A stretch of 64,000 bases of DNA, taken from the NCBI RefSeq assembly GCF_030384885.1, contig NZ_CP128613.1; one strand, written 5' to 3'. The stretch is from Escherichia coli. Its GTDB lineage: Bacteria > Pseudomonadota > Gammaproteobacteria > Enterobacterales > Enterobacteriaceae. The position numbers and the translations under genes were made by a program. Of the stretch, positions 9,930-42,361 are shown piece after piece (position 1 is the first letter of the stretch; every line of letters begins with the position of its first letter). A model generated the notes under the pieces. That model saw nothing but the letters and a program-made list of their open reading frames with translations, made no database searches and was not told the DNA's origin.

Positions 9930-12308
9930 ATGTCCAACAATGGCTCGTCACCGCTGGTGCTTTGGTATAACCAACTCGGCATGAATGATGTAGACAGGGT
10001 TGGGGGCAAAAATGCCTCCCTGGGTGAAATGATTACTAACCTTTCCGGAATGGGTGTTTCCGTTCCGAATGGTTTCGCCACAACCGCCGACGCGTTTAAC
10101 CAGTTTCTGGACCAAAGCGGCGTAAACCAGCGCATTTATGAACTGCTGGATAAAACGGATATTGACGATGTTACCCAGCTTGCGAAAGCGGGCGCGCAAA
10201 TCCGCCAGTGGATTATCGACACTCCCTTCCAGCCTGAGCTGGAAAACGCCATCCGCGAAGCCTATGCACAGCTTTCCGCCGATGACGAAAACGCCTCTTT
10301 TGCGGTGCGTTCCTCCGCTACTGCAGAAGATATGCCGGACGCTTCTTTTGCCGGTCAGCAGGAAACTTTCCTCAACGTTCAGGGTCTTGACGCCGTTCTC
10401 GTGGCAGTGAAACATGTATTTGCTTCTCTGTTTAACGATCGCGCCATCTCTTATCGTGTGCACCAGGGTTACGATCACCGTGGCGTGGCGCTCTCCGCCG
10501 GTGTTCAGCGGATGGTGCGTTCCGACCTCGCATCTTCTGGCGTGATGTTCTCCATTGATACCGAATCCGGCTTTGACCAGGTGGTGTTTATCACTTCCGC
10601 TTGGGGCCTTGGTGAAATGGTCGTGCAGGGCGCGGTTAACCCGGATGAGTTTTACGTACATAAACCGACACTGGCGGCAAATCGCCCGGCTATCGTGCGC
10701 CGCACCATGGGGTCAAAAAAAATCCGCATGGTTTACGCGCCGACCCAGGAGCACGGCAAGCAGGTTAAAATCGAAGACGTACCGCAGGAACAGCGTGACA
10801 TCTTCTCGCTGACCAACGAAGAAGTGCAGGAGCTGGCAAAACAGGCCGTACAAATTGAGAAACACTACGGTCGCCCAATGGATATTGAGTGGGCGAAAGA
10901 TGGCCACACCGGCAAACTGTTCATTGTGCAGGCGCGTCCGGAAACCGTGCGCTCACGCGGTCAGGTCATGGAGCGTTATACGTTGCATTCACAGGGTAAG
11001 ATTATCGCCGAAGGCCGTGCTATCGGTCATCGCATCGGCGCGGGTCCGGTGAAAGTCATTCATGACATCAGCGAAATGAACCGCATTGAACCTGGCGACG
11101 TGCTGGTCACTGACATGACCGACCCAGATTGGGAACCGATCATGAAGAAAGCATCTGCCATCGTCACCAACCGTGGCGGTCGTACCTGTCACGCGGCGAT
11201 TATCGCTCGTGAACTGGGCATTCCGGCGGTAGTGGGCTGTGGTGATGCAACAGAACGGATGAAAGACGGTGAGAACGTCACTGTTTCTTGTGCAGAGGGT
11301 GATACCGGTTACGTCTATGCTGAGTTGCTGGAATTTAGCGTGAAAAGCTCCAGCGTGGAAACGATGCCGGATCTGCCGTTGAAAGTGATGATGAACGTCG
11401 GTAACCCGGACCGTGCTTTCGATTTCGCCTGCCTGCCGAACGAAGGCGTGGGCCTTGCGCGTCTGGAATTTATCATCAACCGTATGATTGGCGTCCACCC
11501 ACGCGCACTGCTTGAGTTTGACGATCAGGAACCGCAGTTGCAAAACGAAATCCGCGAGATGATGAAAGGTTTTGATTCTCCGCGTGAGTTTTACGTTGGT
11601 CGTCTGACTGAAGGGATCGCGACGTTGGGTGCTGCGTTTTATCCGAAGCGTGTCATTGTCCGTCTCTCTGATTTTAAATCGAACGAATACGCCAACCTGG
11701 TCGGTGGTGAACGTTACGAGCCAGATGAAGAGAACCCAATGCTCGGCTTCCGTGGCGCGGGACGTTATGTTTCCGACAGCTTCCGCGACTGCTTCGCACT
11801 GGAGTGTGAAGCGGTGAAACGTGTGCGCAACGACATGGGACTGACCAACGTTGAGATCATGATCCCGTTCGTGCGTACCGTAGATCAGGCGAAAGCGGTG
11901 GTTGAAGAACTGGCGCGCCAGGGGCTGAAACGTGGTGAAAACGGGCTGAAGATCATCATGATGTGTGAAATTCCGTCCAACGCCTTACTGGCAGAGCAGT
12001 TCCTCGAATATTTCGACGGCTTCTCAATTGGCTCAAACGATATGACGCAGCTTGCGCTTGGTCTGGACCGAGACTCCGGCGTGGTGTCTGAACTGTTCGA
12101 TGAGCGCAACGATGCAGTGAAAGCACTGCTGTCGATGGCGATTCGTGCCGCGAAGAAGCAGGGCAAATATGTCGGGATTTGCGGTCAGGGTCCGTCCGAC
12201 CATGAAGACTTTGCCGCCTGGCTGATGGAAGAGGGGATCGATAGCTTGTCCCTGAATCCGGACACTGTGGTACAAACCTGGTTAAGCCTGGCTGAACTGA
12301 AGAAATAA
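9930..12308 (+). CDS. ppsA: Phosphoenolpyruvate synthase
   Basis: 792-aa ORF, PEP-utilising enzyme family with phosphohistidine region ([21 protein letters not shown]). Confidence 0.97.
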
Positions 12309-12316
12309 AATAAATA

Positions 12317-12343
12317 CCCGGCGGCGTTTTGTCGCCGGGTTTA
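12317..12343. terminator. Bidirectional hairpin terminator between convergent ppsA and fadK
   Basis: cccggcg-gcgttttgt-cgccggg followed by ttt; lies between the two convergent stops. Confidence 0.65.
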
Positions 12344-12364
12344 CGTGATCCCCGAGTATGAAAC

Positions 12365-14011
12365 TTATTCAACCTCTTCGCAGATATCCTGAGTTAATCG
12401 CCGCATAATATCTTTCCTTAACAAAAACTTTTGTATTTTACCTGATGCAGTACGTGGTAATTTCTCTGTTACCACAATATGTTCAGGATATTTATATTTT
12501 GCTACCCGTTTACGGCTAAAAAAAGCCACTATGTCTTTCAGCGATATTGAATGATGTGGCGCTTTCAGCACGACATAAGCGCATGAACGTTCACCTAAGC
12601 GTTCATCGGGCATTGCCACAACACAAGCATCATGAATTTTAGGATGCTGTAATAAAATATCTTCCACTTCACGACTGCTAATATTTTCCCCGCCGCGGAC
12701 AATAATATCTTTCTTGCGCCCGGTTATTTTTATATAGCCAGCTTCATCCATTCGGCAGAGATCGCCGCTGTAATACCAGCCTTCTTCATCCAGCGCACGG
12801 GCGGTTAATTCAGGTTCATCAAAATACCCCATAAATACATTGGGGCCACGCGAGGCTTCTTCACCTACACAACCAGGCGGTAAGGTCTTGCGTGCATCAT
12901 CGACCACTTTAATCTCTACGCCTGCGGCAGCGTAACCATCGGTGTTCATAAAGCGCGACAAAGGATCGTCGAGATTTACCACCGCATGCGGCGAACTTTC
13001 TGTGGAACCATAAACACTTAATAATTTAATGCCGCGTTGTTGGCATTCACGCGCCACCTTTTTGGGGATCGTGGTGCCGCCGCAAAGAAAGAAGCGGAGT
13101 GCTGAAAGGTCCGCAGGCTGTTTTTCCAGTAAGTTCAGCAAATCATAGACAAATGGCGTGGCGCCGAGCATACAGGTGCAACGCTGCTGCTCAAGCAGCG
13201 CGAGACACGCATCAGGAGTGAAAATATCTAACAACACGCTGCGAGCACCAATCAAAAAAGGTGCCGTTACGCCATGCAGAAAGCCCGTTGCGTGACCAAG
13301 TGGCGCAGGCATCATAAAGACATCCTGCCAGGTCAGGTTCAGCCGCGCGCAATATGCCCGCTCACTGGCGAGAATATTGTTATGCGTTAGCATCACGCCC
13401 TTTGGCTGCCCCTCAGTTCCGGAGGTAAATAGCACTGCTGCTAATTCATCGCCGTGGACCGTTATTGCCTTAGTCAGTGGGGTATTGTCGGCGATAAGAT
13501 GACTTAACGAGAGGGACGAGGTGGCGGGGGCCAGTTTGTCGACGCCGACGATTTGCTGTAGTTGTGGAAGCTGATTTTGCAGCGGCAGGATTAAATCTAC
13601 CGGACGCGTTTGTTTAAACAACGTCGGTGCAAAGAACATTTTTGCCTGACACTTATTGAGCACCCACACCAGTTCAGCCTCCCGCCAGGAAGGCAACAGC
13701 GGCACGGAAACCGCACCGGTTTTCAGGCAGGCAAGATAGATAACGGTAAATTCACACCAGCCAGGCAGTTGAAAAGCAATGCGATCCCCTGATTCAATAC
13801 CCTTCGCCAGCATCCAGTTTGCCAGACAGCTCGCGGCGTGATCGAGCTCGCTATAGGTGTACGATGCACCATGATTATCGACCACGGCAATTTTATCTGG
13901 CATCGAACGAGCGGTCTGCTGCCAGTAATCGGCCAGCGAAGCATCGCCCCATAATCCTTGTTGACGATAAGCCGCACGACGTTGTTCGTTAAACGTTAAT
14001 GTCACTTTCAT
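12365..14011 (-). CDS. fadK: Short/medium-chain acyl-CoA synthetase (anaerobic)
   Basis: 548-aa frame from internal ATG (MKVTLTFNEQ...) of the 566-aa track ORF; AMP-binding signature FTSGTEGQPKGV. Confidence 0.9.
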   Translation of the reverse strand: MKVTLTFNEQRRAAYRQQGLWGDASLADYWQQTARSMPDKIAVVDNHGASYTYSELDHAASCLANWMLAKGIESGDRIAFQLPGWCEFTVIYLACLKTGAVSVPLLPSWREAELVWVLNKCQAKMFFAPTLFKQTRPVDLILPLQNQLPQLQQIVGVDKLAPATSSLSLSHLIADNTPLTKAITVHGDELAAVLFTSGTEGQPKGVMLTHNNILASERAYCARLNLTWQDVFMMPAPLGHATGFLHGVTAPFLIGARSVLLDIFTPDACLALLEQQRCTCMLGATPFVYDLLNLLEKQPADLSALRFFLCGGTTIPKKVARECQQRGIKLLSVYGSTESSPHAVVNLDDPLSRFMNTDGYAAAGVEIKVVDDARKTLPPGCVGEEASRGPNVFMGYFDEPELTARALDEEGWYYSGDLCRMDEAGYIKITGRKKDIIVRGGENISSREVEDILLQHPKIHDACVVAMPDERLGERSCAYVVLKAPHHSISLKDIVAFFSRKRVAKYKYPEHIVVTEKLPRTASGKIQKFLLRKDIMRRLTQDICEEVE

Positions 14012-14067
14012 TTTGGACTCTCGAAACAGAACATCAGGCCCGAGATACGGGCCTGTGGGATGCATGA

Positions 14068-14361
14068 TTAGCCGTAGCGAAAATCAATACCGAAGGTGCC
14101 TGCGGGATATTGCCACTGTTCGAGAATCGTATTGCCACACAACACCCGACAGGTGCCGCATTCGAGACAACCGGCGGAATCAAAATGTATGTTTCCTGCG
14201 TCATCCTGCTTATACAGTCCGGCAGGGCAAGCTTTCATTAATTTACGGAATTCATTGATATCGGGATTTGCCGCCAGAATGATATGCGGGTGACCCTCAT
14301 CAACATGGAATTTATTGACACCTAATTTGATGTCGACGTTAACCGTAGCGTTCTGGCTCAT
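14068..14361 (-). CDS. ydiT: FixX-like ferredoxin
   Basis: 97-aa ORF with Cys cluster (CPAGLY...DSAGCLECGTCRVLC); start overlaps ydiS stop (ATGA). Confidence 0.9.
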   Translation of the reverse strand: MSQNATVNVDIKLGVNKFHVDEGHPHIILAANPDINEFRKLMKACPAGLYKQDDAGNIHFDSAGCLECGTCRVLCGNTILEQWQYPAGTFGIDFRYG

Positions 14362-15647
14362 AGCGCGGTTGCTCCCTTAATGCCATCTTTCAGCAAGTTG
14401 ATCAGCCCAATTTTCTTCGCATGTCCCATGATCATTTTGCGTACCGGTTGGTTAGGCTTACCGTCGATAGTGAACATTTCGTTCATGATGTCGGCGACCA
14501 TTCGTGGGTATTGGCTAAACAGGCGCGGGTTTTCCATCAGCGCCGGGATCTTGCGAAAATGCTGCATATCACGCATGACGCAACTTTGTTCCAGCTCACG
14601 TTTGTATTGCGCCAGGCTGCTGGCGGAGAAGTCAGCGCGTTCTTTAGCGGCAATCACTGTTGTGGCAGCAGCCTGGGCCGATGCGATGGCTAAATCCATT
14701 CCGCGAACCGTAAAGCCCAGATTGAGGCAGAAACCTGCGGCATCACCGACGATCATCACGCCCTCATTAACCAGCTGCGGCACCATCGCCAGACCGCCTT
14801 CCGGCACCATGTGCGCGGAATATTCAAGCAGTTTGCCGCCGCTAATCAGTGGGCGAATGGCGGGGTGTTGTTTAAAATCTTCCAGCATTTGCGGCACGCT
14901 TTTTTTTGCATGGGCGATATCACCCAATCCACAAACCAGCCCCAACGATACGGAATCCTTGTTGGTATAGAGGAATCCGCCGCCCATCAGGCCGTCAGAA
15001 GGGGAACCGGCAAACAGCCAGGCGGTACCTTCCTCGCCCATAACATTAAAGCGATCGTTGATTTGCTCTGGTGTAAGACCAATAACCTCTTTAACACCAA
15101 CTGCGTAATGATGCGGATCGGAAGCGGGAACCATTCCCAGCGAGCGGCCAAGCATTGAGTTAACGCCATCAGCCAGAATCACTACATTCGCTTCGAGAAT
15201 ATCCTCCCCGGCCTGGACGCCAGTGACCTTGTTTCCTTCACGAACCAGCGCATCGACGCGAACACCCGGGATAAACTGCGCACCCGCCTGTTCGGCTAGT
15301 TCCATCAACCACGGGTCCAGACGATTACGCAATACGGTATAAGACGCGTGTTGCGGAACATCTGGTTGCTCGCGGTGAAAATCGAGGGTAACGGCACTCT
15401 CTTCGGTTAAGAAGGAGATTTTCTCGCGTGTGACCTTGCGTTCTACCGGTGCTGATGCAGCAAAGCCCGGAATGATCGCTTCAAGTGTGTGGGCATAAAG
15501 ACGCCCGCCGGTCATATTTTTGCATCCGGCACTGTCGCCGCGTTCTATCACCAGGACATCCAGCCCGGCTCGCGCCATGACCAGTGCGGCAACGCTACCG
15601 GCAACGCCCGCACCGACCACAATGGCATCAAATTTGTCATCCGACAT
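14358..15647 (-). CDS. ydiS: FixC-like flavoprotein (ETF-quinone oxidoreductase family)
   Basis: 429-aa ORF with N-terminal FAD-binding GxGxxG (VVGAGVAGSVAA). Confidence 0.92.
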   Translation of the reverse strand: MSDDKFDAIVVGAGVAGSVAALVMARAGLDVLVIERGDSAGCKNMTGGRLYAHTLEAIIPGFAASAPVERKVTREKISFLTEESAVTLDFHREQPDVPQHASYTVLRNRLDPWLMELAEQAGAQFIPGVRVDALVREGNKVTGVQAGEDILEANVVILADGVNSMLGRSLGMVPASDPHHYAVGVKEVIGLTPEQINDRFNVMGEEGTAWLFAGSPSDGLMGGGFLYTNKDSVSLGLVCGLGDIAHAKKSVPQMLEDFKQHPAIRPLISGGKLLEYSAHMVPEGGLAMVPQLVNEGVMIVGDAAGFCLNLGFTVRGMDLAIASAQAAATTVIAAKERADFSASSLAQYKRELEQSCVMRDMQHFRKIPALMENPRLFSQYPRMVADIMNEMFTIDGKPNQPVRKMIMGHAKKIGLINLLKDGIKGATAL

Positions 15648-15701
15648 GCGTTATGCTCCCTTCCCGCTGCGTTTACAGCGGGAGATGTGGTTGAAAGGGA
15701 A

Positions 15702-16640
15702 TTAGCGACTCAACTGACTAATCAGGGCAGGGACGACTTTGTAGATATCGCCCACCAGACCGTAGTCGGCATAGTTGAAGATTGGCGCATTTTTATCTTT
15801 ATTAATGGCGACAATCACTTTTGCACCGTTGCCGCCAACCATATGCTGGATCTGCCCGGAGATCCCCAGCGTCAGGTAGAGATCGGATTTCAGCAACACG
15901 CCGGAGACACCGATATAACGTTCACGCTCCATCCAGTTCTCGCCTTCGGCAATTGGACGTGAACAGCCGACTTCAGCATTCAGAACCGCCGCCAGTTCGT
16001 GGACCATTTTCAGGTCATCCTGCGCCGCCAGACCACGACCGACGCCAACCACACGTTTTGCTTTGCTCAGGTCCACGCTGCTTGCCGCTTTCGCACGGCG
16101 TTCGCGACAGAGAATTTCATGACGCGGGGCAACATAAGGTACCGTTTCTGTCGGGCACTGATGAGAGATATCACTGGTGCACGGTTCCTGAACACCGGGT
16201 GCAAGGGTAATGATCGCCAGCGGGCTGTTGATCTTTTCCTGAGCGAACGCTAACCCGCCATACATCCGGTGTTCGGCGCAAATGTGACCATCGACAATAT
16301 CCACCGCCGTGGCATCGTTCACCAGCGCCGCATTCAGTTGCACACTTAACCGTGCTGCCAGAGCTTTACCACGTTTCGTCGCGGCCAACAGCAACATAGC
16401 GGGGTGTTTATCTTTCAGCAGGGCAGCAATGCTTTCGGCGTAATTTTCAGTACGTTGCAGCGCGTCGTTTTGTTCAAGAACATAAATACATTTTGGCCCA
16501 TAAGGCATAACTGCCTGCGCCTGGTCGGTATTTTGTACAATGGCATACACCTGTTGGCCCCATTGCTGAGCGCCGCCAAACAGTTCAGCATAACGTTCAG
16601 GATTATCGCTAAAGACCCAGACGCTGTTTAATTGACTCAT
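15702..16640 (-). CDS. ydiR: Electron-transfer flavoprotein alpha subunit (FixB-like)
   Basis: 312-aa ORF of ETF-alpha family. Confidence 0.92.
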   Translation of the reverse strand: MSQLNSVWVFSDNPERYAELFGGAQQWGQQVYAIVQNTDQAQAVMPYGPKCIYVLEQNDALQRTENYAESIAALLKDKHPAMLLLAATKRGKALAARLSVQLNAALVNDATAVDIVDGHICAEHRMYGGLAFAQEKINSPLAIITLAPGVQEPCTSDISHQCPTETVPYVAPRHEILCRERRAKAASSVDLSKAKRVVGVGRGLAAQDDLKMVHELAAVLNAEVGCSRPIAEGENWMERERYIGVSGVLLKSDLYLTLGISGQIQHMVGGNGAKVIVAINKDKNAPIFNYADYGLVGDIYKVVPALISQLSR

Positions 16641-16659
16641 CGTTTCTTCTCCGTAGGCT

Positions 16660-17424
16660 TCAGTTCAGGGCTTTCTTCAGATGTTCCGCCAGCTCGGCAA
16701 TGGCCTCCGGCGAATCGTTATCGAGAATGATGTGCTTACGTTCTGTTTGCGGCGGTACGCGAATGCCGGTCAGTTCAGCAAGTGGTGTGCTCTGGCTCCA
16801 GCCAATATCACTTGCCTGCCACTGATTTACCGGTTTTTTACCCGCGCCGAGAATGGCTTTCATCGAAGGAATGCGTGGCATGTTAATATCGGAGGTGACG
16901 CAGAGCACGGCTGGAACAGAGAGCTCAATAACTTCAACATCATCTTCAAGCGTGCGTTCAATCACCAGTGTATTGCCCTGACGCTGAATAGCACTCACTG
17001 CATTAATCACCGGAAGTTGCAGAATTTCTCCGACCAGCAAGCCAACCTGCTGGGCATAAAGGTCGCCGGAACCTTCACCAAAGATCAGTAAATCGAAGCC
17101 GATCTTTTCAACTGCTGCCGCCAGCGCCTTTGCGGTATCGAGAGGCAGTGCATGTTCAAGTTGCGCATCCTGCACCAAATACAGGCTATGCGGCCCGCGG
17201 GATAGCACGTCTTTGCGCACTTTCGAGTTCTGCAACAATGAGCCGCCAATGGTCAGCGCGGCTATCTCATCGTCATCTGTTGCAATCTGGCTTGCAGCTT
17301 CAATGGCATTGAGATCGAACTGGCTGATTTTGGCGTCGGCATTGTCGAAATTCAGGGTATATTCTGGAGTGACAACAATGTCCTGTTCTTCAGGCACCAG
17401 CTTAAAGCAGGTTATTATTTTCAT
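16660..17424 (-). CDS. ydiQ: Electron-transfer flavoprotein beta subunit (FixA-like)
   Basis: 254-aa frame from internal ATG (MKIITCFKLVPEEQD...) with SD ctcacaggaga; the track ORF extends 33 codons upstream, which I reject. Confidence 0.9.
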   Translation of the reverse strand: MKIITCFKLVPEEQDIVVTPEYTLNFDNADAKISQFDLNAIEAASQIATDDDEIAALTIGGSLLQNSKVRKDVLSRGPHSLYLVQDAQLEHALPLDTAKALAAAVEKIGFDLLIFGEGSGDLYAQQVGLLVGEILQLPVINAVSAIQRQGNTLVIERTLEDDVEVIELSVPAVLCVTSDINMPRIPSMKAILGAGKKPVNQWQASDIGWSQSTPLAELTGIRVPPQTERKHIILDNDSPEAIAELAEHLKKALN

Positions 17425-17739
17425 GATTTCTCCTGTGAGTCGCATACGGAACCATCTCCGATGGAAGGTAAAAATGGCCTGAAAATAGTGTGCGATAGCG
17501 GTGCGGGGTTTTCGACGGAGCAAGCTGTTTTCCTTGCCAACAATCTTGCAAAAAAAATGCGATCGCTAAAACAAAAGTGCAATTTGCGGCAAAGTTGTTA
17601 TTCCATGACCGTACAATCTTGCATTCAGTGTAAATAATCTTGTTTAGCTCTCGCTAAACGCGGTTGTATAACCGCAATACACGCCGTATTTTATCCGGCA
17701 TATATTGTTTTTGCTTGCTCATGGAATAGGGAGGTTGTC

Positions 17740-18651
17740 ATGTATCAACGCTGTTTTGATAACGCCAGCGAAACGCTGTTTGTCGCCGGTAAAACGCCAC
17801 GGCTTTCACGTTTTGCATTTAGCGATGATCCAAAATGGGAGTCCGGACATCACGTTCATGACAATGAAACCGAGTTGATTTACGTCAAGAAAGGGGTAGC
17901 AAGGTTTACCATCGATTCTTCGTTATATGTCGCGCATGCCGATGACATTGTGGTGATAGAACGTGGCAGGTTGCATGCGGTGGCCTCTGACGTTAACGAT
18001 CCGGCAACGACGTGTACCTGTGCGCTGTACGGCTTTCAGTTTCAGGGGACTGAGGAAAATCAGCTACTGCAACCGCATTCTTGCCCGGTCATTGCCGCAG
18101 GGCAGGGAAAAGAAGTCATTAAAACCTTATTTAATGAGCTAAGTGTGATTTTGCCGCAAAGTAAAAATAGCCAAACATCTTCGTTATGGGACGCATTTGC
18201 CTATACGTTAGCAATTCTTTACTACGAAAACTTTAAAAATGCTTATCGTTCGGAGCAGGGGTATATTAAAAAAGATGTTCTGATAAAAGATATTCTTTTC
18301 TATCTGAATAATAATTATCTCGAAAAAATCACTTTAGAGCAGTTATCGAAAAAATTTCGTGCCAGCGTCAGTTATATCTGCCATGAATTTACCAAAGAGT
18401 ATCGTATTTCCCCTATTAACTATGTTATTCAACGGCGTATGACGGAAGCGAAATGGTCACTCACTAATACTGAATTATCACAGGCAGAGATCTCCTGGCG
18501 TGTGGGTTATGAAAATGTCGATCACTTTGCCAAACTGTTTTTGCGCCATGTCGGCTGTTCGCCCAGCGATTACCGCAGGCAATTTAAAAACTGTTTTGCG
18601 GAACAAGAAATCCTATCTGAATTTCCTCAACCAGTAAGTCTTGCCGGATAA
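17740..18651 (+). CDS. ydiP: AraC/XylS-family transcriptional regulator
   Basis: 303-aa ORF with C-terminal AraC-type HTH region; divergent from ydiQ operon. Confidence 0.9.
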   Translation: MYQRCFDNASETLFVAGKTPRLSRFAFSDDPKWESGHHVHDNETELIYVKKGVARFTIDSSLYVAHADDIVVIERGRLHAVASDVNDPATTCTCALYGFQFQGTEENQLLQPHSCPVIAAGQGKEVIKTLFNELSVILPQSKNSQTSSLWDAFAYTLAILYYENFKNAYRSEQGYIKKDVLIKDILFYLNNNYLEKITLEQLSKKFRASVSYICHEFTKEYRISPINYVIQRRMTEAKWSLTNTELSQAEISWRVGYENVDHFAKLFLRHVGCSPSDYRRQFKNCFAEQEILSEFPQPVSLAG

Positions 18652-18655
18652 ATCT

Positions 18656-18687
18656 GGCGGCGCAGTTTGTTAAGAAGCTGCGCCGCC
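18656..18687. terminator. Bidirectional hairpin between convergent ydiP and ydiO
   Basis: ggcggcgcag-tttgttaagaa-gctgcgccgcc, 10-11 bp GC-rich stem. Confidence 0.6.
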
Positions 18688-18693
18688 TGCAGA

Positions 18694-19845
18694 TTATTTG
18701 TTCTGATAATCTTTCAGGATCTGCCGACCCGCTACGTAAATCATAATTTCGTCTGTACCGCCGCCGATACGTTCACAACGGACATCACGCCAGAAGCGGG
18801 AGACGCGCGCCTCATCGGTATAGCCCAGACCGCCCATGATTTGAATCGCATCATCAATAACTTCCATTGCGGTACGTGCGCAGTACAGTTTTGCCAGCGC
18901 CGCGCTGGTGCGCAGTGACTGATGCTGATCGGCTTGCCATGCCACTTTCAACACCATGTTGCGCATGTTGTCGATCTTAATCGCCATCAGCGCCAGTTTT
19001 TCCTGGATCATCTGGTTATGACCAATGGGTTTACCAAAAGCGATACGTTGGTTGGCATAGCGGGCGGCATCTTCGAATGCGCATTCGGCAAAGCCGGTGC
19101 TGCGCGCGGCGTTGATCAGGCGCTCCATCTCAAAGTTGTACATCACATTGAGGAAACCCATTCCTTCTTCGCCCACCATGTCGCTCTCTTCAACCTCTAC
19201 GTTGTCGAGATAGACTTCGCAGGTGCTGAGCATATGCCAGCCGATTTTATGCAGCGGGTTAATCTTAATGCCGGGCTTACTGGAGTCGACCCACCACAGG
19301 GTGAAGGCTTTTTTGGGATCTTTCGGTTCTGGATCGCGCGCCAGCACCAGCATATATGGGTACTCTTTCGCGCCGGTAATAAAGGTTTTCTGGCCGTTGA
19401 TGTAAACCTTGCCATTTTTACGCGTGTAAGTGGTAGTGGCACTGTTATTGTCTGAGCCTGCGCCTGGTTCCGTCAACGCCAGGGCATAGGCGGGATCACC
19501 CGTTTCCAGGGTGCTCTCTGCCGTTTTACGTAGCTGCTCAGCAGAACCGAAACGGCGCATGCTGTGAATACATTGACCGTTGGTAATCAAAAATGCCGGA
19601 GCACCGCATTTTGACACTTCCATCAGCGCCAACATCTGGGTGACGTAATCCGCAGGGATGCCACCAAATTCTTCCGGCACGCCAAGCATAGAAATGCCGT
19701 TATCCGCCAGTGCCCGCATAAACTCACGCGGGTATGTCCCGTTTTGATCGCAGGTGCGGAAATACTCTTCCGGGAAGTTGGTCGTAATCAACTCGCGAAT
19801 ACTGGCCAGCAGCAGTTCTTGTTCTTCAGTTAAAGAAAAATCCAT
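18694..19845 (-). CDS. ydiO: Acyl-CoA dehydrogenase family protein
   Basis: 383-aa frame from internal ATG (MDFSLTEEQELL...) with SD aacaggagta; ACAD-family sequence. Confidence 0.9.
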   Translation of the reverse strand: MDFSLTEEQELLLASIRELITTNFPEEYFRTCDQNGTYPREFMRALADNGISMLGVPEEFGGIPADYVTQMLALMEVSKCGAPAFLITNGQCIHSMRRFGSAEQLRKTAESTLETGDPAYALALTEPGAGSDNNSATTTYTRKNGKVYINGQKTFITGAKEYPYMLVLARDPEPKDPKKAFTLWWVDSSKPGIKINPLHKIGWHMLSTCEVYLDNVEVEESDMVGEEGMGFLNVMYNFEMERLINAARSTGFAECAFEDAARYANQRIAFGKPIGHNQMIQEKLALMAIKIDNMRNMVLKVAWQADQHQSLRTSAALAKLYCARTAMEVIDDAIQIMGGLGYTDEARVSRFWRDVRCERIGGGTDEIMIYVAGRQILKDYQNK

Positions 19846-19858
19846 CGTGATACTCCTG

Positions 19859-21454
19859 TTAATGAGCCGCTTCAGGCAGGACAAAACCCATCGCCGCATC
19901 GATAAATAATCTTTCGTCCATCAGTTTGAGTTCTGGTGAAATCACTGGGGTGAAATCCATTTTGTCGAGAATATCTTTTTGTAAATCGACGCCAGGGGCG
20001 ATTTCGATTAAATGCAGGCCGTCTTCTTTTAGCGTGAATACGGCGCGCTCAGTGATATAACGAACATCCAGCCCTCGCTCGAGAGCGATTTTTCCGCTGA
20101 AAGTAATTTCCGGTAGTTCCCGAATAAATTTCTTCACCCGTCCTTCCTGGACGATATTTAATTTGCCGTCGGTAATTTCTGTTTTTAAACTGCCCGCAGT
20201 TAACGTGCCGCAGAAAACGATTTTCTTCGAAGTGGCACTGATATCAATAAATCCACCGGTGCCCATGATTTTACCATTGAATTTATGCACGCCGACGTTA
20301 CCGTGCTGGTCGACTTCAGCAAAACTCAAATAACAAACATCCAGACCGCCACCGTGATAAAAATCAAACTGGGACGTCATATCCAGAATGGCACGGGTAT
20401 TCACGTTCGCGCCAAAGGCGATACCCTGTGAAGTAATACCGCCAATTGGGCCTGTTTCTACCGTCAGAATAAAGTCATCAGCACAACCTTCTTCCCGGGC
20501 GACCAGGCCAATGCCGTCAGCAATACCGACGCCGACATTCCCCACCGCGCCTTTACGCATTTCGAATAATGCGCGCCGCGCAACTAATTTACGTTGGTTT
20601 AGGGGCAGGCTAAGTTTGGTACTGTCATCAAGGGTGAAGTCACCAGAAATAAAGCGGTTAACCGGCGCACCGCCATACAGTTGGGTTTGATCCGGATCGA
20701 CCACCACAATATCCACCAGATAACCCGGAATACGGACAGATTTAGGATGCAGCGTGGCTTTCTTAACCATTTTCTGCACCTGCATCATCACAATACCGCC
20801 GTTATTGTGCACCGCCTGAGCAATAACCAATGCGTCGAGATACATCACCTCATCTTCAAAAGTGGCGTAGCCTTCGCTGTCGCAGGTGGTAGCGCGAATG
20901 AAGGCGATATCTGGCGCTATCGCTTTGTAATAGAGATATTCTTTGTTATCAAACTCGACCAGTTTAATCAGGTCTTCTTTAGTGACTTCATTCAGTTTGC
21001 CGCCTTGCTGGCGTGGATCGACAAATGTTCCGATGCCAATATCACTAATAATACCAGGCTGGTGGGCTGCGGCGGCGCGTAAGGTTTGTGTAAGTACACC
21101 TTGTGGATAGTTATAAGCAATAATTTTATTTTGTTCTGCGAGATCAGAAATACGCGGCGATTGTCCCCAGTGACCGCATAATGCCCATTTCACCAGACCT
21201 TCTTGTGCCAGCGGACTAATACCACGGTCGGCGCGATCGCCAAGCCCTGTTGGACTAATAATCGATAAATTACGTGGTGTTTGAGTCTGTTTATATTTAT
21301 CAGCAAGAGCAGTAATTAACGTGGTGGCTTCCAGAATACCGCCGCCAGCGCCTAACACACAAAGTGTTGCTTCGTCGGGAATATAATTCACCGCTTCCTG
21401 TGCCGACAGGACCGGCACTCGTCCATTAATACGAGGTGGTTTTACAGGTTTCAT
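19859..21454 (-). CDS. ydiF: Family I CoA-transferase (acetate/short-chain acyl-CoA transferase, fused alpha-beta)
   Basis: 531-aa ORF recognised as YdiF. Confidence 0.92.
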   Translation of the reverse strand: MKPVKPPRINGRVPVLSAQEAVNYIPDEATLCVLGAGGGILEATTLITALADKYKQTQTPRNLSIISPTGLGDRADRGISPLAQEGLVKWALCGHWGQSPRISDLAEQNKIIAYNYPQGVLTQTLRAAAAHQPGIISDIGIGTFVDPRQQGGKLNEVTKEDLIKLVEFDNKEYLYYKAIAPDIAFIRATTCDSEGYATFEDEVMYLDALVIAQAVHNNGGIVMMQVQKMVKKATLHPKSVRIPGYLVDIVVVDPDQTQLYGGAPVNRFISGDFTLDDSTKLSLPLNQRKLVARRALFEMRKGAVGNVGVGIADGIGLVAREEGCADDFILTVETGPIGGITSQGIAFGANVNTRAILDMTSQFDFYHGGGLDVCYLSFAEVDQHGNVGVHKFNGKIMGTGGFIDISATSKKIVFCGTLTAGSLKTEITDGKLNIVQEGRVKKFIRELPEITFSGKIALERGLDVRYITERAVFTLKEDGLHLIEIAPGVDLQKDILDKMDFTPVISPELKLMDERLFIDAAMGFVLPEAAH

Positions 21455-21597
21455 TGTTAATTCCTGATTCAGGTGTGATTTTCCCTACGCCAGATGGAGA
21501 ATTAGCGCACAGAGACTCACGAAATATTTTTATTAAATACGGTTGAATATATTTTTTTGTTCGGCGGGGGAGGGTATTCCCGCCGAAATATTATTGC

Positions 21598-22356
21598 TTA
21601 TGCCTGATGTAAAATAGTTAATACCGTGCGCAAATCATTTACCGAGATTTGCCCTGGCGCAGAGGCTTTTTTTACCGCACCAAAAGTTGCCGCCGAGCCA
21701 AATACTTCACCAGCCAGACGAGAAATTACGCCAGTTTTTGCCATCGACATCGTGATGATTGGACGATCGGCATACTGCTCCTGCATCTCCAGGGTCGCAG
21801 CAAGCAACGTCAGCACATCGCTGGTACTTTGCGGCATCAGCGCAATCTTAGGAATATCGGCATCGAAGGACTGCATTTTGCGCAGACGGGCAATGATTTC
21901 TTCGGCTTCCGGCGTTTTATGGAAGTCATGGTTGGACATGACAACTTTCACATCATGCGCGTGGGCGTAGGCGACGGTTTCTTTAACCTGATCATCGCCG
22001 GTAAATAACTCCAGATCGATCATATCAACCAGGCCACTATCGATGGCTGCACGATTGAGTGCAATATAAGCCTCGGTGGAAATCGCCTGCTCGCCGCCTT
22101 CTTTGGCACTGCGGAAGGTAAACAGCAGCGGTTTTTCTGGCATGGTTTCACGGAGAATTTTTGCCGCTGCCATGACAGACTCCACATTGGAGAGGTCGGC
22201 ATAGTGGTCAACACGCCATTCCAGAATATCAAAGTCCGCTTCACGATAGGCGAGAGCTTCGGATTTCACGCTGGCGATATCTTTCGCCATCAGCGAGACG
22301 ATGATTTTAGGTGCGCCCGTACCAATGACGAGATCTTTTACAGTTACGGTTTTCAT
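21598..22356 (-). CDS. aroD: 3-dehydroquinate dehydratase, type I
   Basis: 252-aa [55 protein letters not shown]... Confidence 0.96.
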
Positions 22357-22386
22357 TTTTTACCCTTTCTGCACGCGGTCAGCCTG

Positions 22387-23253
22387 TCAGGCACCAAACC
22401 CCATGACCTGTTTAACATATTCCAGAGGGAAATCTTTGCCAGTCCATAACGTGAACTGTTCAGCCCCTTGCCACAACAACATGCCGTATCCATCAATCGT
22501 TTTGCAACCAGCTTGTTGCGCCTGCTGCAATAACTTCGTCATATGCGGGTTATACACGCATTCAGTGACCAGAAGTCCCGGATGTAACAGACTGATATCA
22601 TTAACCAATGATTCATTCTCAAGGGGTTTCATACCCACTTTTGTGCCATTGGTTAAAATGTCGGCGGAAGCCAGGGCTTCAGCAAAGGCTTGCTGATCGG
22701 CGAGATCGGTGACTGTCACGACGCAATCGGTGTTTTCGTTAACCCGCTGCGCGAAGGCGAGGGCTTTATCGAAGAACTCATCCCGACGGTTAAAGAGTTT
22801 AATTTCTTTTAAACCTTCAATTGCCCCCTGCGCGCCAATCGCCGTTGAGGCACCTCCGGCCCCTAACAGCACCATCGTTTTGCCTTTGATATCAAAACCG
22901 CTCTCTTTAATGGCGCGAATATGCCCCGTGCCGTCGGTGTTATAGCCACGCAGATAGCCATCATCATTAACGATGGTGTTGATGGCCCCCACCAGTTTGG
23001 CAGCTGGTGTTAATTCATCAACATATTCACACGCCAGTTGTTTGTTCGGCATTGATACACCAGTTCCGCGCATTTTTAGAGCTTTTAATCCTTCAATTGC
23101 TCCGGGAAAGCTATCGTTATCCACTTCAAAGGCCATATAGGTAAATGGCAATCCCGCTTTTTCTAAGGCTTTATTCTGCATTTCGGGCGATAAACTGTGG
23201 CGGATAGGATAGGCCATCAACCCAATCAATTCGTATTTTGCGGTAACATCCAT
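22387..23253 (-). CDS. ydiB: Quinate/shikimate dehydrogenase, NAD(P)-dependent
   Basis: 288-aa ORF of the AroE/YdiB family with GAGGA nucleotide-binding motif. Confidence 0.94.
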
Positions 23254-23264
23254 AATTAACTCCT

Positions 23265-24530
23265 TTAACCTCTATGCTTAATTGTGTTTAACCGGGTGCT
23301 AAATTTACGCTCGCCAAACCGCACATCATTTTCAGGAATAATGAAAACGCGGTAATAGCGGATAAAAACAATAATTGCGGTAATCAGGGCCAGCAGCGCG
23401 AAAGTAAAATCGAGAACAATGATATATTGCAGGCCGATGTTCGACAGATAACCGGTAATCAGCGGAATAACAAAGTTAGCCAGTCCACCCATCATCATAT
23501 AAATACTGGTGACTTTGGCTTTGCTTTTGGGGAAAAACTCTGACATGACCGAAACGCCGAGCTGTAAAATGCCGCCAGCCGCTGAGAAACCGATAACAAA
23601 GGCTCCGGCATTACACACCAGTGGAGAAGGGTACAGGTAGATAATGGCAGCTGTTATTGTTGCCAGTGCAGAGTTAAATACATTAGCCCAGATGGGCCGG
23701 ACCATTTTTTTCAGTAGTGCGGCAAAAATAAAGACACAGACCAACGAGCCCATACTGTAATAAGAGATGGTTTTTAATGCCTCAGCTTCTGACATACCAG
23801 CAAAAGCCATCGCATATTTGGGCATCCACACCACAATCACATAAAAGGTCGAGAATGCGGCTACACCGAACAGTACCGATGAAACACCTTCCAGCCAGAC
23901 TAATGGTTTGCTGTTCATTTGTGGTAATTCATGAGCTACGCTGGCGTCCACCAACTGGCTGGGGAATTTGCTTTTCAACAGCATCAACGTGATCAGTAAA
24001 AATAGGATGCCTGGAATAATCAGCCCATAGCCGTACCAGATATTATTGAGCAACATATAGCTCACTAGCATTGGATAGAACATTTGTCCAAATGACACCA
24101 TTGCTTTAACCAGTATGACTGCCGAACCGGAGGCTTTCGGAAAGCATTCCATTAGCGCGGGGTAACCACCCGTATCCAATGCTGAGTTAGCGATACCTAC
24201 GCACACTGCCAGACAGTAGGCGAGAGTTAAATTCGGGCAAGCGGGAATACCAAAGAAGAATAGCAGATACATTATTACTGCCATTAATATTACCGCCCGA
24301 CGACCAAACTTATCGGAGATCACACCGAAGAATAAAATACTGATCAATCGCCCCAAACCGATACCGGAAATTAAATAGGCAATGCCCGCGTTGTCAGTAG
24401 AAAACTTTTCTGCCAGAGATGACATATTTTGGGCAAGCGTTATAACACTAATGCCGTGCAGGAAATAGCTGAAGTAAATACAAAGAACAGCCAGGATAAA
24501 TGGCGTGCTGAAAGCCTTATTTTGAGACAT
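23265..24530 (-). CDS. ydiN: MFS transporter
   Basis: about 421-aa 12-TM hydrophobic ORF; I chose the ATG with AAGGAG SD (track ORF starts 2 codons earlier at GTG). Confidence 0.88.
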
Positions 24531-24756
24531 TTTCACAGCTCCTTGCTGAAAGATAATTTCGTTACCGTACGTATTGTTCTCCGACGGTTTACATAATTAC
24601 TATACTGAAGATGATTTTCCCTGGGTACATGGCATAAAGTTTATGTTTCCAGGAATATTGCATGTCATAGTTTGTTTTTTATCGCGATTTTCCTTAGTTG
24701 GCGCAGAAAGAGTTATTTATCCGTAAGATCTTGCATGACCTGAAAAGAATATTGCA

Positions 24757-25971
24757 TTACCCACCCGGAGCGACATTTTCCTTTAGCGAGTGATGCCACG
24801 TTTCTTTGCGGCTGCGTAAGCCGATAAACAGTGCCAGTAAAAAGCCGATGGCAGCGATGGCGGTATCGAACCACATAATATCGGCAATACTTCTTTGGGA
24901 CAGATGAGCCGTAATCAACGGAATAGTAAAGGTCGCAATACTGCCCGCACTGTAATAGATCCCTGTAGCTTTACCTTTAGCGTAGGGGAAACGTTCAGCC
25001 ATTAATGTCAGGCCAATTTGCACAACACCTCCAGCAGAGGTAAAACCAATGACAAAAGCAAATATTATCACCACATAAAATGTGGGATGCAGACAGACGG
25101 TAAACAGAGCAATAAATGAGATAAAGGTGTACAGCATCAGTAATGTTGTTGGGCGAACGGTATTACGAATGAGTGGAGCGGTAATAAATACACAAAGCAG
25201 CGAACCCACGGTGTAGATACTGAGTAGTTTGATCGACATAGTGTATGACATGCCTGCAACAAATTGTCCGTACTGTGCCAGCCACTGGCTAACCAGATAA
25301 AAGGTTGCCATTGAGATATAGCCATATAAGGTATAACTGGCTAAATCGATAATTGAACAGCGATGTTCCGTAGAGTTGGTGGCTTTCTCTATGACAGGTA
25401 AGCGACGACCCGGATGTGGTGGGAACGTACAACGGTATAAAAACAGAGCGTTAATAAACATAATGCCTGCGGCAATCATAAAGGACCAGCCGAACCACAG
25501 TTCAGCCCACACTAACAGGCTGATGATTAGCGGTAATAAAAATTGCCCGCTGGAAACAAATGCTTTAATTAAAATATTAGCTGTACCCGGTGAACGTGGA
25601 AAAGCTTCCATCAAACTGGGATAGGTGCCTGCATCGAGAAAACTGTTTGCCATTCCCGCCAGAAAGCCCAAACCATAAGCGATAATGATGTTATTGGTGT
25701 GCAGGATGCCAAAAAAGAAGGCCATATAGCAGCACATCCCGAGCATGATAAAAGGGCGGCGACCAAAGCGATCGGATAATAATCCTGCAAAAAGCAAGAC
25801 ACTTAATCGACCAATACCCAGCGATGAGATAACTATTGAGACGCCTGCGGCATTAGTCTGCCAAAGCGTCTCCAGCGAGGCCATATTCAGGCTCATCAAA
25901 ATGACGCCCATACCATGCACCAGGTAATTAAAATACAACCCAAGTGCGGTAGGGAAATAGGGATTTTTCAT
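24757..25971 (-). CDS. ydiM: MFS transporter
   Basis: 404-aa hydrophobic ORF, paralogous in architecture to ydiN. Confidence 0.9.
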   Translation of the reverse strand: MKNPYFPTALGLYFNYLVHGMGVILMSLNMASLETLWQTNAAGVSIVISSLGIGRLSVLLFAGLLSDRFGRRPFIMLGMCCYMAFFFGILHTNNIIIAYGLGFLAGMANSFLDAGTYPSLMEAFPRSPGTANILIKAFVSSGQFLLPLIISLLVWAELWFGWSFMIAAGIMFINALFLYRCTFPPHPGRRLPVIEKATNSTEHRCSIIDLASYTLYGYISMATFYLVSQWLAQYGQFVAGMSYTMSIKLLSIYTVGSLLCVFITAPLIRNTVRPTTLLMLYTFISFIALFTVCLHPTFYVVIIFAFVIGFTSAGGVVQIGLTLMAERFPYAKGKATGIYYSAGSIATFTIPLITAHLSQRSIADIMWFDTAIAAIGFLLALFIGLRSRKETWHHSLKENVAPGG

Positions 25972-26069
25972 AGGTTCTACTTAGCAAAGGTGCTTTAAAA
26001 AGTGAAGCGATGTTGTGTCAGCATCCGTTCATTATTGTTGTAACAACGACAATTCCTTTCTTTGGAAAA

Positions 26070-26426
26070 TTAACAAAGGCGCTCCAGATCGTGTGCATAT
26101 AATTCAGCGGCTACCGATTGATAGATCTTCCAGTCAATAAAATTGCCATCAGGGTAGACACGTTGAAACGCGGTTAAGTCAGGGAAAAAACGCATGGTGT
26201 TGTTGCCGATGTGGTTATTTATTTTCTCTATGATGGCATGAAGATGTTTTTTTCGTTGCTGTCGCATAGCCAACAGTTGCTCGACCACACGATCAGGAAT
26301 GGCGCATTTGCCATTTTCCCACTGACGCCAGCTTTCACTGTCACCGGTCTGGGCAATCCAGGTCGCGCATTCATCAATAGTCATGGCAAAAATATGGCGG
26401 AGTGCCTGGAGTTCATAAGCGTTCAT
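26070..26426 (-). CDS. ydiL: Uncharacterised protein YdiL
   Basis: 118-aa frame from internal ATG (MNAYELQALRHIF...); the track ORF begins at an upstream TTG. Confidence 0.85.
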   Translation of the reverse strand: MNAYELQALRHIFAMTIDECATWIAQTGDSESWRQWENGKCAIPDRVVEQLLAMRQQRKKHLHAIIEKINNHIGNNTMRFFPDLTAFQRVYPDGNFIDWKIYQSVAAELYAHDLERLC

Positions 26427-26563
26427 CGTGTAATGGCTGCATGAAATAAACAATAAAATATAAATAACATTATCAGCCTGCTGACGGCTTGAAGAGAGTC
26501 ACAGTATCTTGTGCAACATTATTGGAAAGAGTGAGGGGCGAGGTAGCGAAGCGGAAAAATGTT

Positions 26564-42347: not shown

Positions 42348-42361
42348 TTGATAACGATCAA
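42348..42361 (+). promoter_or_regulatory. FNR box (TTGAT-N4-ATCAA) upstream of ydhY operon
   Basis: TTGATAACGATCAA, perfect match to FNR consensus half-sites, about 200 nt upstream of ydhY ATG in an AT-rich region. Confidence 0.8.

Follow-up and report, generated by a model that had tools for sequence, protein, structure and literature searches.

Conserved linkage to shikimate-pathway genes and a shared operator point to a possible CoA-dependent electron sink in the Escherichia coli ydi module

In a 64-kb stretch of Escherichia coli contig NZ_CP128613.1 (the window, meaning that whole stretch), the genes ydiF, ydiO, ydiP, ydiQRST and fadK encode a CoA-transferase, an acyl-CoA dehydrogenase (ACAD)-like enzyme, an AraC-family regulator, an electron-transfer flavoprotein (ETF) with its oxidoreductase and ferredoxin partners, and an acyl-CoA ligase. 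Here, we report that these genes form one module with their neighbors ydiN, ydiB and aroD, which encode a transporter, a quinate/shikimate dehydrogenase and a dehydroquinase, as seen in gene order that is kept across genera or rearranged yet linked, and in an operator that precedes both transcription units. We propose that the module carries out the CoA-dependent reduction of a quinate- or shikimate-derived acid, an electron sink like carnitine or caffeate respiration, and we put the probability of this reading at about 0.5. Genomic context and cis-regulatory elements argue strongly for a hydroaromatic substrate, as far as sequence can tell. For a reductive direction under anaerobiosis there are indirect indications, namely a chromatin immunoprecipitation (ChIP) site for FNR and the behavior of characterized paralogues.

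The ydi module extends through aroD and ydiB to ydiN

The initial annotation of this locus ended the module at ydiF. The seven genes it named (ydiF, ydiO, ydiP and ydiQRST-fadK) do belong together, but judged by synteny and operator the limit is too narrow. In RefSeq, aroD, ydiB, ydiN and ydiM stand directly upstream of ydiF on the same strand, and the functional unit runs on through aroD, ydiB and ydiN to position 24663, where it takes in the ydiN operator. A scan for YdiO homologues with one genome per species returned 45 loci (L-numbers below denote loci from our YdiO and YdiF homologue scans). Every sufficiently flanked locus among them keeps the order ydiN-ydiB-aroD-ydiF-ydiO-(ydiP)-ydiQRST-fadK, in a set that spans Escherichia, Citrobacter, Kosakonia, Intestinirhabdus, Yersinia, Serratia, Dickeya, Brenneria, Prodigiosinella and Symbiopectobacterium. 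The conservation of YdiO and YdiF is unusually high: when E. coli is compared with Yersinia, Serratia or Dickeya, they are 91 to 93% and 87 to 90% identical, respectively, against just 64 to 70% for YdiP.

The linkage also survives rearrangement. In the betaproteobacterium Sutterella, whose copy (YdiO 80 to 84%, AroD 68 to 71% identity) is a horizontal acquisition, ydiQRST and the ligase gene have moved to the other side and read divergently, with ydiN-ydiB-aroD-ydiF-ydiO left intact. The metagenomic locus L053 (42% GC) is a single co-directional operon, ydiN-ydiF-ydiO-ydiQ-ydiR-ydiB-aroD-ydiS-ydiT, next to a divergent gene for a YdiP homologue; identities to E. coli are 69% for ydiN, 70% for ydiF, 83% for ydiO, 77% for ydiB and 69% for aroD. 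L056 carries the genes for a major facilitator superfamily (MFS) transporter, ydiF, ydiO, ETF beta, ETF alpha, type I dehydroquinase (DHquinase_I), FixC, FixX and an AMP-ligase, in this order, and L054 has shikimate dehydrogenase-ydiF (76%)-ydiO (89%). The shikimate dehydrogenase and dehydroquinase genes of L053 lie between the ETF and FixC genes, as does the type I dehydroquinase gene of L056, and in both loci the MFS gene directly precedes ydiF. Sedimentibacter acidaminivorans and a 33%-GC genome have YdiF homologues of 63 to 65% identity that belong to a five-gene set with a type II dehydroquinase, a non-homologous replacement with a fold unrelated to that of AroD.

A dehydroquinase and/or shikimate dehydrogenase gene is present in all contexts of the YdiF/YdiO orthogroup bar one stand-alone YdiO copy (P0027, 74% identity, next to an aldo-keto reductase gene), and none of more than 50 neighborhoods contains a gene for a hydratase, hydroxyacyl-CoA dehydrogenase or thiolase. 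The association is specific to this orthogroup, because YdiO-like proteins of 62 to 68% identity (Desulfovibrio, E. albertii and a JGI genome) have CaiB-type transferases and no shikimate genes nearby. It fades with a Cloacibacillus YdiF homologue (61%), near which genes for an NMO-type reductase, MaoC and TRAP transporters are found and no dehydroquinase gene.

The cluster as first described is not new. Our search of the accessible literature returned no published link between ydiN/ydiB and ydiF/ydiO/ydiQ, and nothing relevant on dihydroshikimate or on shikimate or quinate combined with ACAD, ETF or CoA-transferase. The new part is the hydroaromatic linkage, that is, ydiN-ydiB-aroD as part of the ydi module.

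The scans also brought up several variants of these neighborhoods. A conserved five-gene set of low-GC anaerobes (L055, 10001-14082; L059, 8001-12011), codes for a YdiF-like CoA-transferase, a MaoC dehydratase, an ApbA/PanE-type reductase, an ~130-aa hypothetical protein and a type II dehydroquinase, and it may serve to ferment quinate/shikimate in a CoA-dependent manner. Sister modules of the Desulfovibrio type (L050, L051, L058) hold a family III CoA-transferase, an MFS transporter, ETF beta and alpha, FixC and FixX, and further carry a metallo-beta-lactamase-fold protein and an AMP-ligase; the E. albertii sister module (L052) has a second ACAD, an AraC regulator and a desulfoferrodoxin instead. 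In Yersiniaceae and Pectobacteriaceae, a LysR gene is divergent from ydiN (L022-L029, L032, L039 and L045, ~3.2 to 4.7 kb), and in Serratia, Brenneria, Symbiopectobacterium and Prodigiosinella the shikimate kinase gene aroL lies between ydiL and ydiM (L023, L026, L032, L039 and L045, ~0.8 to 2.1 kb); the E. coli locus is without both. In Sutterella wadsworthensis (L038, 3655-5018), the divergent ydiQ and ydiN are separated by 1.36 kb without any open reading frame (ORF) of at least 90 aa, and there is no YdiP homologue nearby.

A common operator in front of ydiQ and ydiN

The 315-bp regulatory spacer between the divergent ydiP and ydiQ contains a ydiQ-proximal 39-bp element, TTGCAAGATnGTTGGnAAnnAAAACAnnTTnnCnnGTCG, which is nearly invariant across 10 Enterobacterales genera and is followed by a conserved -10-like block. 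The core of this operator is TGCAAGAT. Two distal boxes in the same spacer, AAACAAGATTnTTT and ATGCAAGATnnTnCG, are exactly 21 bp apart in 10/10 genera examined. The direct-repeat half-sites at a spacing of ~21 bp, together with a proximal element that ends next to the -10-like block, have the layout of an AraC/XylS-type operator.

For a search of the window, we trained a 39-bp position weight matrix (PWM) on ydiQ-proximal elements alone, set the threshold at >=12 bits and used 20 shuffled windows as the control. Two sites in the 64 kb reached the threshold, those upstream of ydiQ (53.1 bits) and of ydiN (15.5 bits), compared to at most 8.8 bits in the shuffles. The three ydiN boxes of E. coli reproduce the 21-bp plus 73-bp geometry of the ydiQ promoter. 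The ydiN copy is present in 10 of the 13 Enterobacterales loci sampled, at 13.5 to 24.4 bits, and also in five further Enterobacterales loci of the 18 scanned; individual scores are 13.6 for E. whittamii, 21.2 and 24.4 for Citrobacter, 23.9 for an Enterobacterales metagenome-assembled genome, 16.7 for Yersinia, 15.9 for Dickeya, 21.5 for Serratia, 13.5 for Brenneria and 16.0 for Prodigiosinella. A weaker ydiN-type site occurs in a Sutterella-like contig (11.8 bits). An 18-bp matrix trained without E. coli gave the same picture, and the ydiN elements of the different genera can be aligned. In the distant locus L053 the box pair adjoins the YdiP homologue; it is absent in L054 and L056, both of which are without a YdiP homologue.

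These elements support a predicted co-regulation of the ydiN-led unit with ydiQRST-fadK. The initial annotation had suggested that the two operons are co-regulated, and the shared operator agrees with this, although it sits upstream of ydiN and not of ydiF. Since the hairpin that follows aroD has no U-tract, read-through from aroD into ydiF appears plausible, and this apparent lack of a terminator at the junction would count in favor of the proposed sink.

YdiP, which combines a cupin ligand-binding domain with two helix-turn-helix motifs (Pfam Cupin_2, AraC_binding, HTH_18 and HTH_AraC), is the obvious candidate for the protein that would bind the 39-bp operator. Hydroaromatic acids, mentioned in passing as possible inducers when the locus was first annotated, are now the best-supported lead.

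With respect to FNR, the site reported as 'ydiP/ydiQ' in a ChIP-chip study (PMC1802558) is identical to the consensus site TTGACGTAAATCAA. This sole consensus site is intragenic in ydiP and absent from the other genera, and FNR was rejected as a conserved regulator of the module. Elsewhere in the window, between fumD and ydhY, there is a perfect FNR palindrome, TTGATAACGATCAA (42348-42361); it precedes ydhY by ~200 bp and presumably corresponds to the FNR site already known for the ydhY operon.

Other signals were seen in the noncoding parts of the region. Downstream of the post-aroD hairpin, the aroD-ydiF spacer (21455-21597) contains an inverted repeat, GAATATT-N7-9-AATATTC, which is conserved in Escherichia, Citrobacter and Kosakonia and might be bound by a different, dimeric regulator of ydiF-ydiO. 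At 26511-26528, between ydiL and the small RNA gene rprA, the plus strand has a weaker match to the 18-bp box (13.4 bits). A consensus scan of 12200-26500 for sigma-70 promoters and terminators gave matches no commoner than in shuffles.

The proteins resemble reductive CoA-thioester systems

The likeness to the cai/fix system, already pointed out in the initial annotation, extends to the ACAD, the FixABCX-like ETF, ETF:quinone oxidoreductase (ETF-QO) and ferredoxin, the AMP-ligase and the CoA-transferase, with 45 to 63% paralogy and matching NCBIfam ranks. Identities to the K-12 proteins are 48% for YdiO and CaiA, 54% for YdiQ and FixA, 45% for YdiR and FixB, 61% for YdiS and FixC, 63% for YdiT and FixX, and 29% for FadK and CaiC. 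CaiA, FixA, FixB and FixC are the second-best NCBIfam models for YdiO, YdiQ, YdiR and YdiS, FixX is the sole match of YdiT, and the acryloyl-CoA reductase models AcrC, AcrA and AcrB rank third for YdiO, YdiR and YdiQ. YdiO is a paralogue of CaiA, not CaiA itself, because its score against the CaiA model NF002885 (452 bits) remains under the cut-off of 540.

Among proteins of known structure, YdiQ is closest to CarD of the caffeyl-CoA reductase-Etf complex (6FAH). Its three best solved matches are the bifurcating ETFs CarD (87 bits), LctB (62 bits) and C. difficile EtfB (61 bits); human ETF-beta follows with 53 bits, and the bifurcating ETFs 4KPU and 7KOE are lower at ~44 bits. YdiS has its best structural match in T. 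maritima FixC (7KOE, 239 bits). YdiO and CaiA have GGG or SGG (GGG in YdiO) where most ACADs have the catalytic Glu, and they share an invariant Glu241 in the motif EMERL. Isovaleryl-CoA and long-chain acyl-CoA dehydrogenases use an alternative catalytic base at helix G, which matches the position of Glu241 in YdiO. The second-best model for FadK is the cyclohexanecarboxylate-CoA ligase TIGR03208 (426.6 bits); this likeness, together with the C6-C8 optimum that a review gives for FadK in vitro, would count for a ring acid as substrate.

There are also departures from the carnitine parts list. YdiF, identical to the solved protein 2AHU, belongs to Pfam CoA_trans (family I) and not to the CaiB type (family III), such that its role would be analogous in a different fold family. 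Neither the window cluster nor any of the 45 loci contains an enoyl-CoA hydratase/crotonase gene, and we propose AroD as a functional substitute for CaiD, acting on the free acid. The closest characterized relatives, CaiA-FixABCX, AcrABC and CarCDE, are all reductive, which by analogy argues for reduction by the ydi proteins as well.

A proposed route for quinate and shikimate

Quinate is an alpha-hydroxy acid, the C1 hydroxyl of which is removed by YdiB and AroD via a 3-keto intermediate, in line with textbook knowledge of the shikimate pathway. The 3-dehydroshikimate and shikimate so reached are cyclohex-1-ene-1-carboxylates, in other words, alpha,beta-unsaturated acids. Crotonobetaine and caffeate reduction rely on the very parts seen here, that is, a priming ligase, a CoA-transferase, a CaiA-like flavoenzyme and FixABCX-like electron delivery. 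A quinate/shikimate sink with dihydroshikimate as its product is the most economical reading of the module.

From these features we infer the identity of the acid, the direction of the reaction and the source of electrons as follows. The regulon would comprise P(ydiN)-ydiN-ydiB-aroD-ydiF-ydiO and P(ydiQ)-ydiQRST-fadK, with ydiP between them, and would handle a carboxylic acid as its CoA thioester with the alpha,beta double bond as the redox site. YdiN would import quinate or shikimate. YdiB would oxidize quinate to 3-dehydroquinate and AroD would convert this to 3-dehydroshikimate, which YdiB could reduce to shikimate. FadK would prime the first CoA thioester at the expense of ATP, after which YdiF would move CoA from the product to fresh substrate; that YdiF makes lactyl-CoA in vitro, and so accepts an alpha-hydroxy acid, counts for this assignment. 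YdiO would then reduce the ring C1=C2 bond of the enoyl-CoA with electrons delivered by the ETF YdiQR, which would receive them through YdiS and YdiT from NADH or the quinol pool, to yield dihydroshikimate or its 3-oxo analogue.

Lactobacilli reduce quinate to dihydroshikimate, and the gut flora convert shikimate to cyclohexanecarboxylate. We tentatively suggest, as a reading that is less likely than not, that dietary quinate or shikimate serves E. coli, many other Enterobacterales and gut Sutterella as an electron acceptor inside the cell, where it would be reduced as a CoA thioester to dihydroshikimate.

Features and variation of the E. coli locus

Gene coordinates (Table 1) are those of RefSeq in window numbering, and RefSeq and NCBIfam agree with the genes, positions and families first given for ydiF, ydiO, ydiP and ydiQRST-fadK; NCBIfam models uphold every family assignment of the cluster genes. 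Contrary to the initial description of two converging minus-strand units, these run in tandem on the same strand, and ydiP alone is on the opposite strand, convergent with ydiO across a 42-bp spacer. The fadK ORF extends to 14065, which corresponds to an older start.

Table 1. Genes and candidate regulatory elements of the ydi module (window numbering)
Feature	Position	Strand	Basis or remark
fadK (ydiD), AMP-forming acyl-CoA ligase, 548 aa	12365-14011	minus	RefSeq; NCBIfam NF004758, 1075.7 bits
ydiT-fadK spacer hairpin, possible attenuator	14035-14055	minus	-18.8 kcal/mol, z-score -2.6; partly U-rich tail after it
ydiT, FixX-like ferredoxin	14068-14361	minus	RefSeq and NCBIfam
ydiS, FixC-like ETF:quinone oxidoreductase	14358-15647	minus	RefSeq and NCBIfam
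ydiR, ETF alpha subunit	15702-16640	minus	RefSeq and NCBIfam
ydiQ, ETF beta subunit	16660-17424	minus	RefSeq and NCBIfam
Candidate -10 of the ydiQ promoter, CGCACACTATTTTCAG	17479-17494	minus	Invariant in six-genome alignment; putative role
Proximal 39-bp AraC-type operator of ydiQ, TTGCAAGATTGTTGGCAAGGAAAACAGCTTGCTCCGTCG	17513-17551	minus	PWM 53.1 bits
Distal operator pair, AAACAAGATTATTTAC and ATGCAAGATTGTACGG, 21 bp apart	17609-17645	minus	Spacing kept
ydiP, AraC-family regulator	17740-18651	plus	RefSeq and Pfam
FNR-consensus site, TTGACGTAAATCAA	17875-17888		Inside ydiP coding sequence
ydiP/ydiO bidirectional terminator hairpin	18652-18693	both	-22.6 and -28.5 kcal/mol, z-scores -4.5 and -6.2
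ydiO, CaiA-like acyl-CoA dehydrogenase or enoyl-CoA reductase, 383 aa	18694-19845	minus	RefSeq and NCBIfam
ydiF, fused family I CoA-transferase	19859-21454	minus	RefSeq; solved protein 2AHU/2AHV/2AHW
Post-aroD hairpin without U-tract	21560-21587	minus	-16.6 kcal/mol, z-score -4.0; A-rich tail after it
aroD, type I 3-dehydroquinate dehydratase	21598-22356	minus	TIGR01093, 292 bits (cut-off 139)
ydiB, NAD-dependent quinate/shikimate dehydrogenase	22387-23253	minus	Equivalog NF009390, 669.9 bits (cut-off 349)
ydiN, MFS transporter, first gene of the ydiN-ydiB-aroD(-ydiF-ydiO) unit	23265-24530	minus	RefSeq
Second copy of the 39-bp operator, ~95 bp upstream of ydiN	24625-24663	minus	PWM 15.5 bits
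Two more boxes upstream of ydiN, ATGCAATATTCTTTTC and ATGCAAGATCTTACGG, 21 bp apart	24719-24757	minus	73 bp from proximal box

The window is 100% identical to E. coli strain 2013C-4282 (NZ_CP027579.1), and its 10-kb region 12000-22000 is matched in 5425 of 5426 complete E. coli genomes. The ydiQRST-fadK segment (12365-17424) has ~95.5% DNA identity to K-12 and Sakai and is unique among the 5426 genomes, as opposed to 97.3 to 97.9% identity for ydiO to ydiN (18694-24530), a pattern suggestive of either a recombinant ETF operon allele or a divergent lineage. In ~1% of E. coli genomes, coverage of the ydiQRST-fadK segment is below 80%. In E. coli strain E69 (L047), ppsA follows ~1.4 kb after ydiF and the genes from ydiO through fadK are apparently deleted, and in Enterobacter sp. 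EA-1 (L046) the matches to ydiO, ydiQ, ydiR, aroD and fadK are fragmentary and of lower identity, such that the cluster looks pseudogenized.

Weighing the alternatives

Several observations count against a quinate/shikimate sink, beginning with the fact that no experiment ties these proteins to quinate or shikimate. In ChIP-exo of YdiP from glucose minimal medium, a run made without inducer, the sites reported were weak and lay at sdhC, uxaB, secG and cspA, with neither ydiQ nor ydiN among them; another study ties YdiP to cold-shock genes. The FNR site in ydiP is not conserved in the other genera examined, and motif scans detected no operator copy directly upstream of ydiF. Moreover, aroD encodes the housekeeping biosynthetic dehydroquinase of E. 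coli, and its position in Enterobacterales could be historical, an explanation that is weakened by the non-enterobacterial operons, which are rearranged yet linked. Finally, published genetics, as summarized in reviews, connects fadK and ydiQRST with the anaerobic use of fatty acids by E. coli and of butyrate by Salmonella, and only with an external electron acceptor, which implies oxidation, not reduction. On the supporting side, ydiQ, ydiR, ydiS and ydiT were among ~50 significantly changed genes in a shikimate-accumulating aroK aroL production strain, which, for want of a non-producing control, is circumstantial evidence.

The substrate had been called essentially unknown in the initial annotation. 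The literature does assign one, namely short-chain fatty acids, although reviews call the evidence thin and ydiO has been described as having 'limited functional information'. According to reviews and citations, fadK, ydiO and ydiQRST belong to anaerobic beta-oxidation (Campbell 2003; Morgan-Kiss 2004; Gulevich 2016, the latter placing ydiO and ydiQRST in this complex by its title), and Nuccio and Baumler group ydiFO, ydiQRST and fadHIJK as one pathway. FadK or YdiF would activate the acid, YdiO would oxidize the acyl-CoA to the enoyl-CoA, electrons would pass from the ETF via YdiS/YdiT to quinone and on to nitrate or tetrathionate, and FadIJ, encoded elsewhere, would complete the cycle; the adjacency of aroD and ydiB would have no functional meaning. 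In line with this, reviews report that a fadD fadK double mutant fails on fatty acids anaerobically, that FadK is most active on C6-C8, and that Salmonella ydiQRSTD enables anaerobic butyrate oxidation with an acceptor, the operon being lost in S. Typhi (Bronner 2018). YdiS is indeed ETF-QO-like. Yet the surveyed neighborhoods lack the remaining beta-oxidation genes and have the near-universal dehydroquinase or shikimate dehydrogenase instead, and neither the shikimate genes between ETF and FixC nor the operator common to ydiQ and ydiN is explained. A 2022 review further finds evidence for YdiQR lacking, anaerobic induction of fadK not reproduced and no control by FadR or CRP, and deletion or overexpression of ydiO had minimal effect in reverse beta-oxidation strains. 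We hold fatty-acid oxidation to be less likely than the proposed sink, yet the oxidative role in butyrate or fatty-acid use is the main and a serious rival and could coexist with the proposed sink through enzyme promiscuity.

The same gene-context evidence would also suit the opposite direction, in which the module oxidizes a saturated alicyclic acid from gut microbes (dihydroshikimate or hydroxycyclohexanecarboxylate). YdiO would remake shikimoyl-CoA with electrons passed to quinone, and shikimate would serve aromatic amino acid synthesis or go onward via YdiB/AroD. The quinone-linked ETF-QO homologue, the external acceptor that reviews report as needed, and aroL in the extended cluster of Serratia, Brenneria, Symbiopectobacterium and Prodigiosinella all fit an oxidation. 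On the other hand, the closest characterized paralogues work reductively, at least 10 genes are a heavy investment for salvage, and there is no clear reason why Sutterella, an asaccharolytic respirer, should retain the cluster; we regard this direction as improbable. We give equally little credence to another small acid, be it lactate/acrylate by an acrylate-like route or a dietary enoate, with the shikimate genes sharing regulation or history alone. Here, the Pct-like YdiF with its lactyl-CoA activity and the third-ranking Acr models stand against the lack of a lactoyl-CoA dehydratase and against two unrelated dehydroquinase folds beside YdiF homologues across phyla, which such an acid leaves unexplained.

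Implications

In the E. coli 'y-ome', ydiO, ydiF, ydiQRST, ydiP, ydiN and the physiological role of ydiB have long been listed, and a single hypothesis now covers all of them, offering defined operators and candidate substrates that make an annotation problem directly testable. If the proposed sink is correct, a plant-derived ring acid joins carnitine, caffeate and acrylate among CoA-dependent electron sinks. Quinate and shikimate are abundant in the diet from chlorogenic acid of plants and coffee, and Enterobacterales and Sutterella would be tied to dietary polyphenol metabolism and host hippurate, with YdiO and its partners providing a first enzymatic step of the long-known gut conversion of quinate/shikimate to cyclohexanecarboxylate, then hippurate in the host. 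The sink would also explain why YdiB is retained though E. coli cannot grow on quinate, as well as the place of aroD in the operon, and would reframe the 'butyrate' account of Salmonella ydiQRSTD and its deletion in S. Typhi. If it is wrong, conserved shikimate-pathway enzymes inside an ETF operon still need explaining.

Comparison with known systems

The published anaerobic beta-oxidation (fadK, ydiO and ydiQRST plus fadIJ; Salmonella ydiQRSTD) concerns the same genes and the same acyl-CoA/enoyl-CoA couple, but it is oxidative, uses a straight-chain acid and leaves the quinate/shikimate gene linkage unaccounted for. The qui/qsu/qa quinate clusters share with ydi a quinate/shikimate dehydrogenase, a dehydroquinase, a transporter and a dedicated regulator. 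They proceed via dehydroshikimate dehydratase to protocatechuate, whereas ydi has CoA-thioester and ETF enzymes instead; RefSeq annotates no dehydroshikimate dehydratase gene between selO and ydiK. In the acrylate pathway of Clostridium propionicum, an alpha-hydroxy acid is likewise turned into an enoyl-CoA and then a saturated acyl-CoA with a Pct-like transferase and an ACAD plus ETF. That pathway employs a radical 2-hydroxyacyl-CoA dehydratase, which ydi is without; the C1 hydroxyl of quinate would leave via the 3-keto intermediate through YdiB and AroD.

Caffeate reduction by carABCDE of Acetobacterium woodii (6FAH) uses a CoA-transferase, an ATP-dependent ligase for priming only, an ACAD-type reductase and EtfBA, and acts on a plant-derived alpha,beta-unsaturated acid, as proposed for ydi. 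CarCDE is a soluble electron-bifurcating complex without FixC/FixX, in contrast to ydi with its FixC/FixX-like YdiS/YdiT. With the carnitine system caiTABCDE/fixABCX, the ydi module has in common an ACAD reductase, ETF plus FixC and FixX, an AMP-forming priming ligase, a CoA-transferase that recycles CoA, a transporter for the substrate and a dehydration from which the enoyl group arises. The carnitine system relies on the family III transferase CaiB, the crotonase CaiD, the regulator CaiF and a BCCT transporter for a betaine; ydi has the family I YdiF, no crotonase, an AraC-type regulator and an MFS transporter for what we propose to be an alicyclic polyol acid, the double bond of which would form on the free acid through YdiB and AroD.

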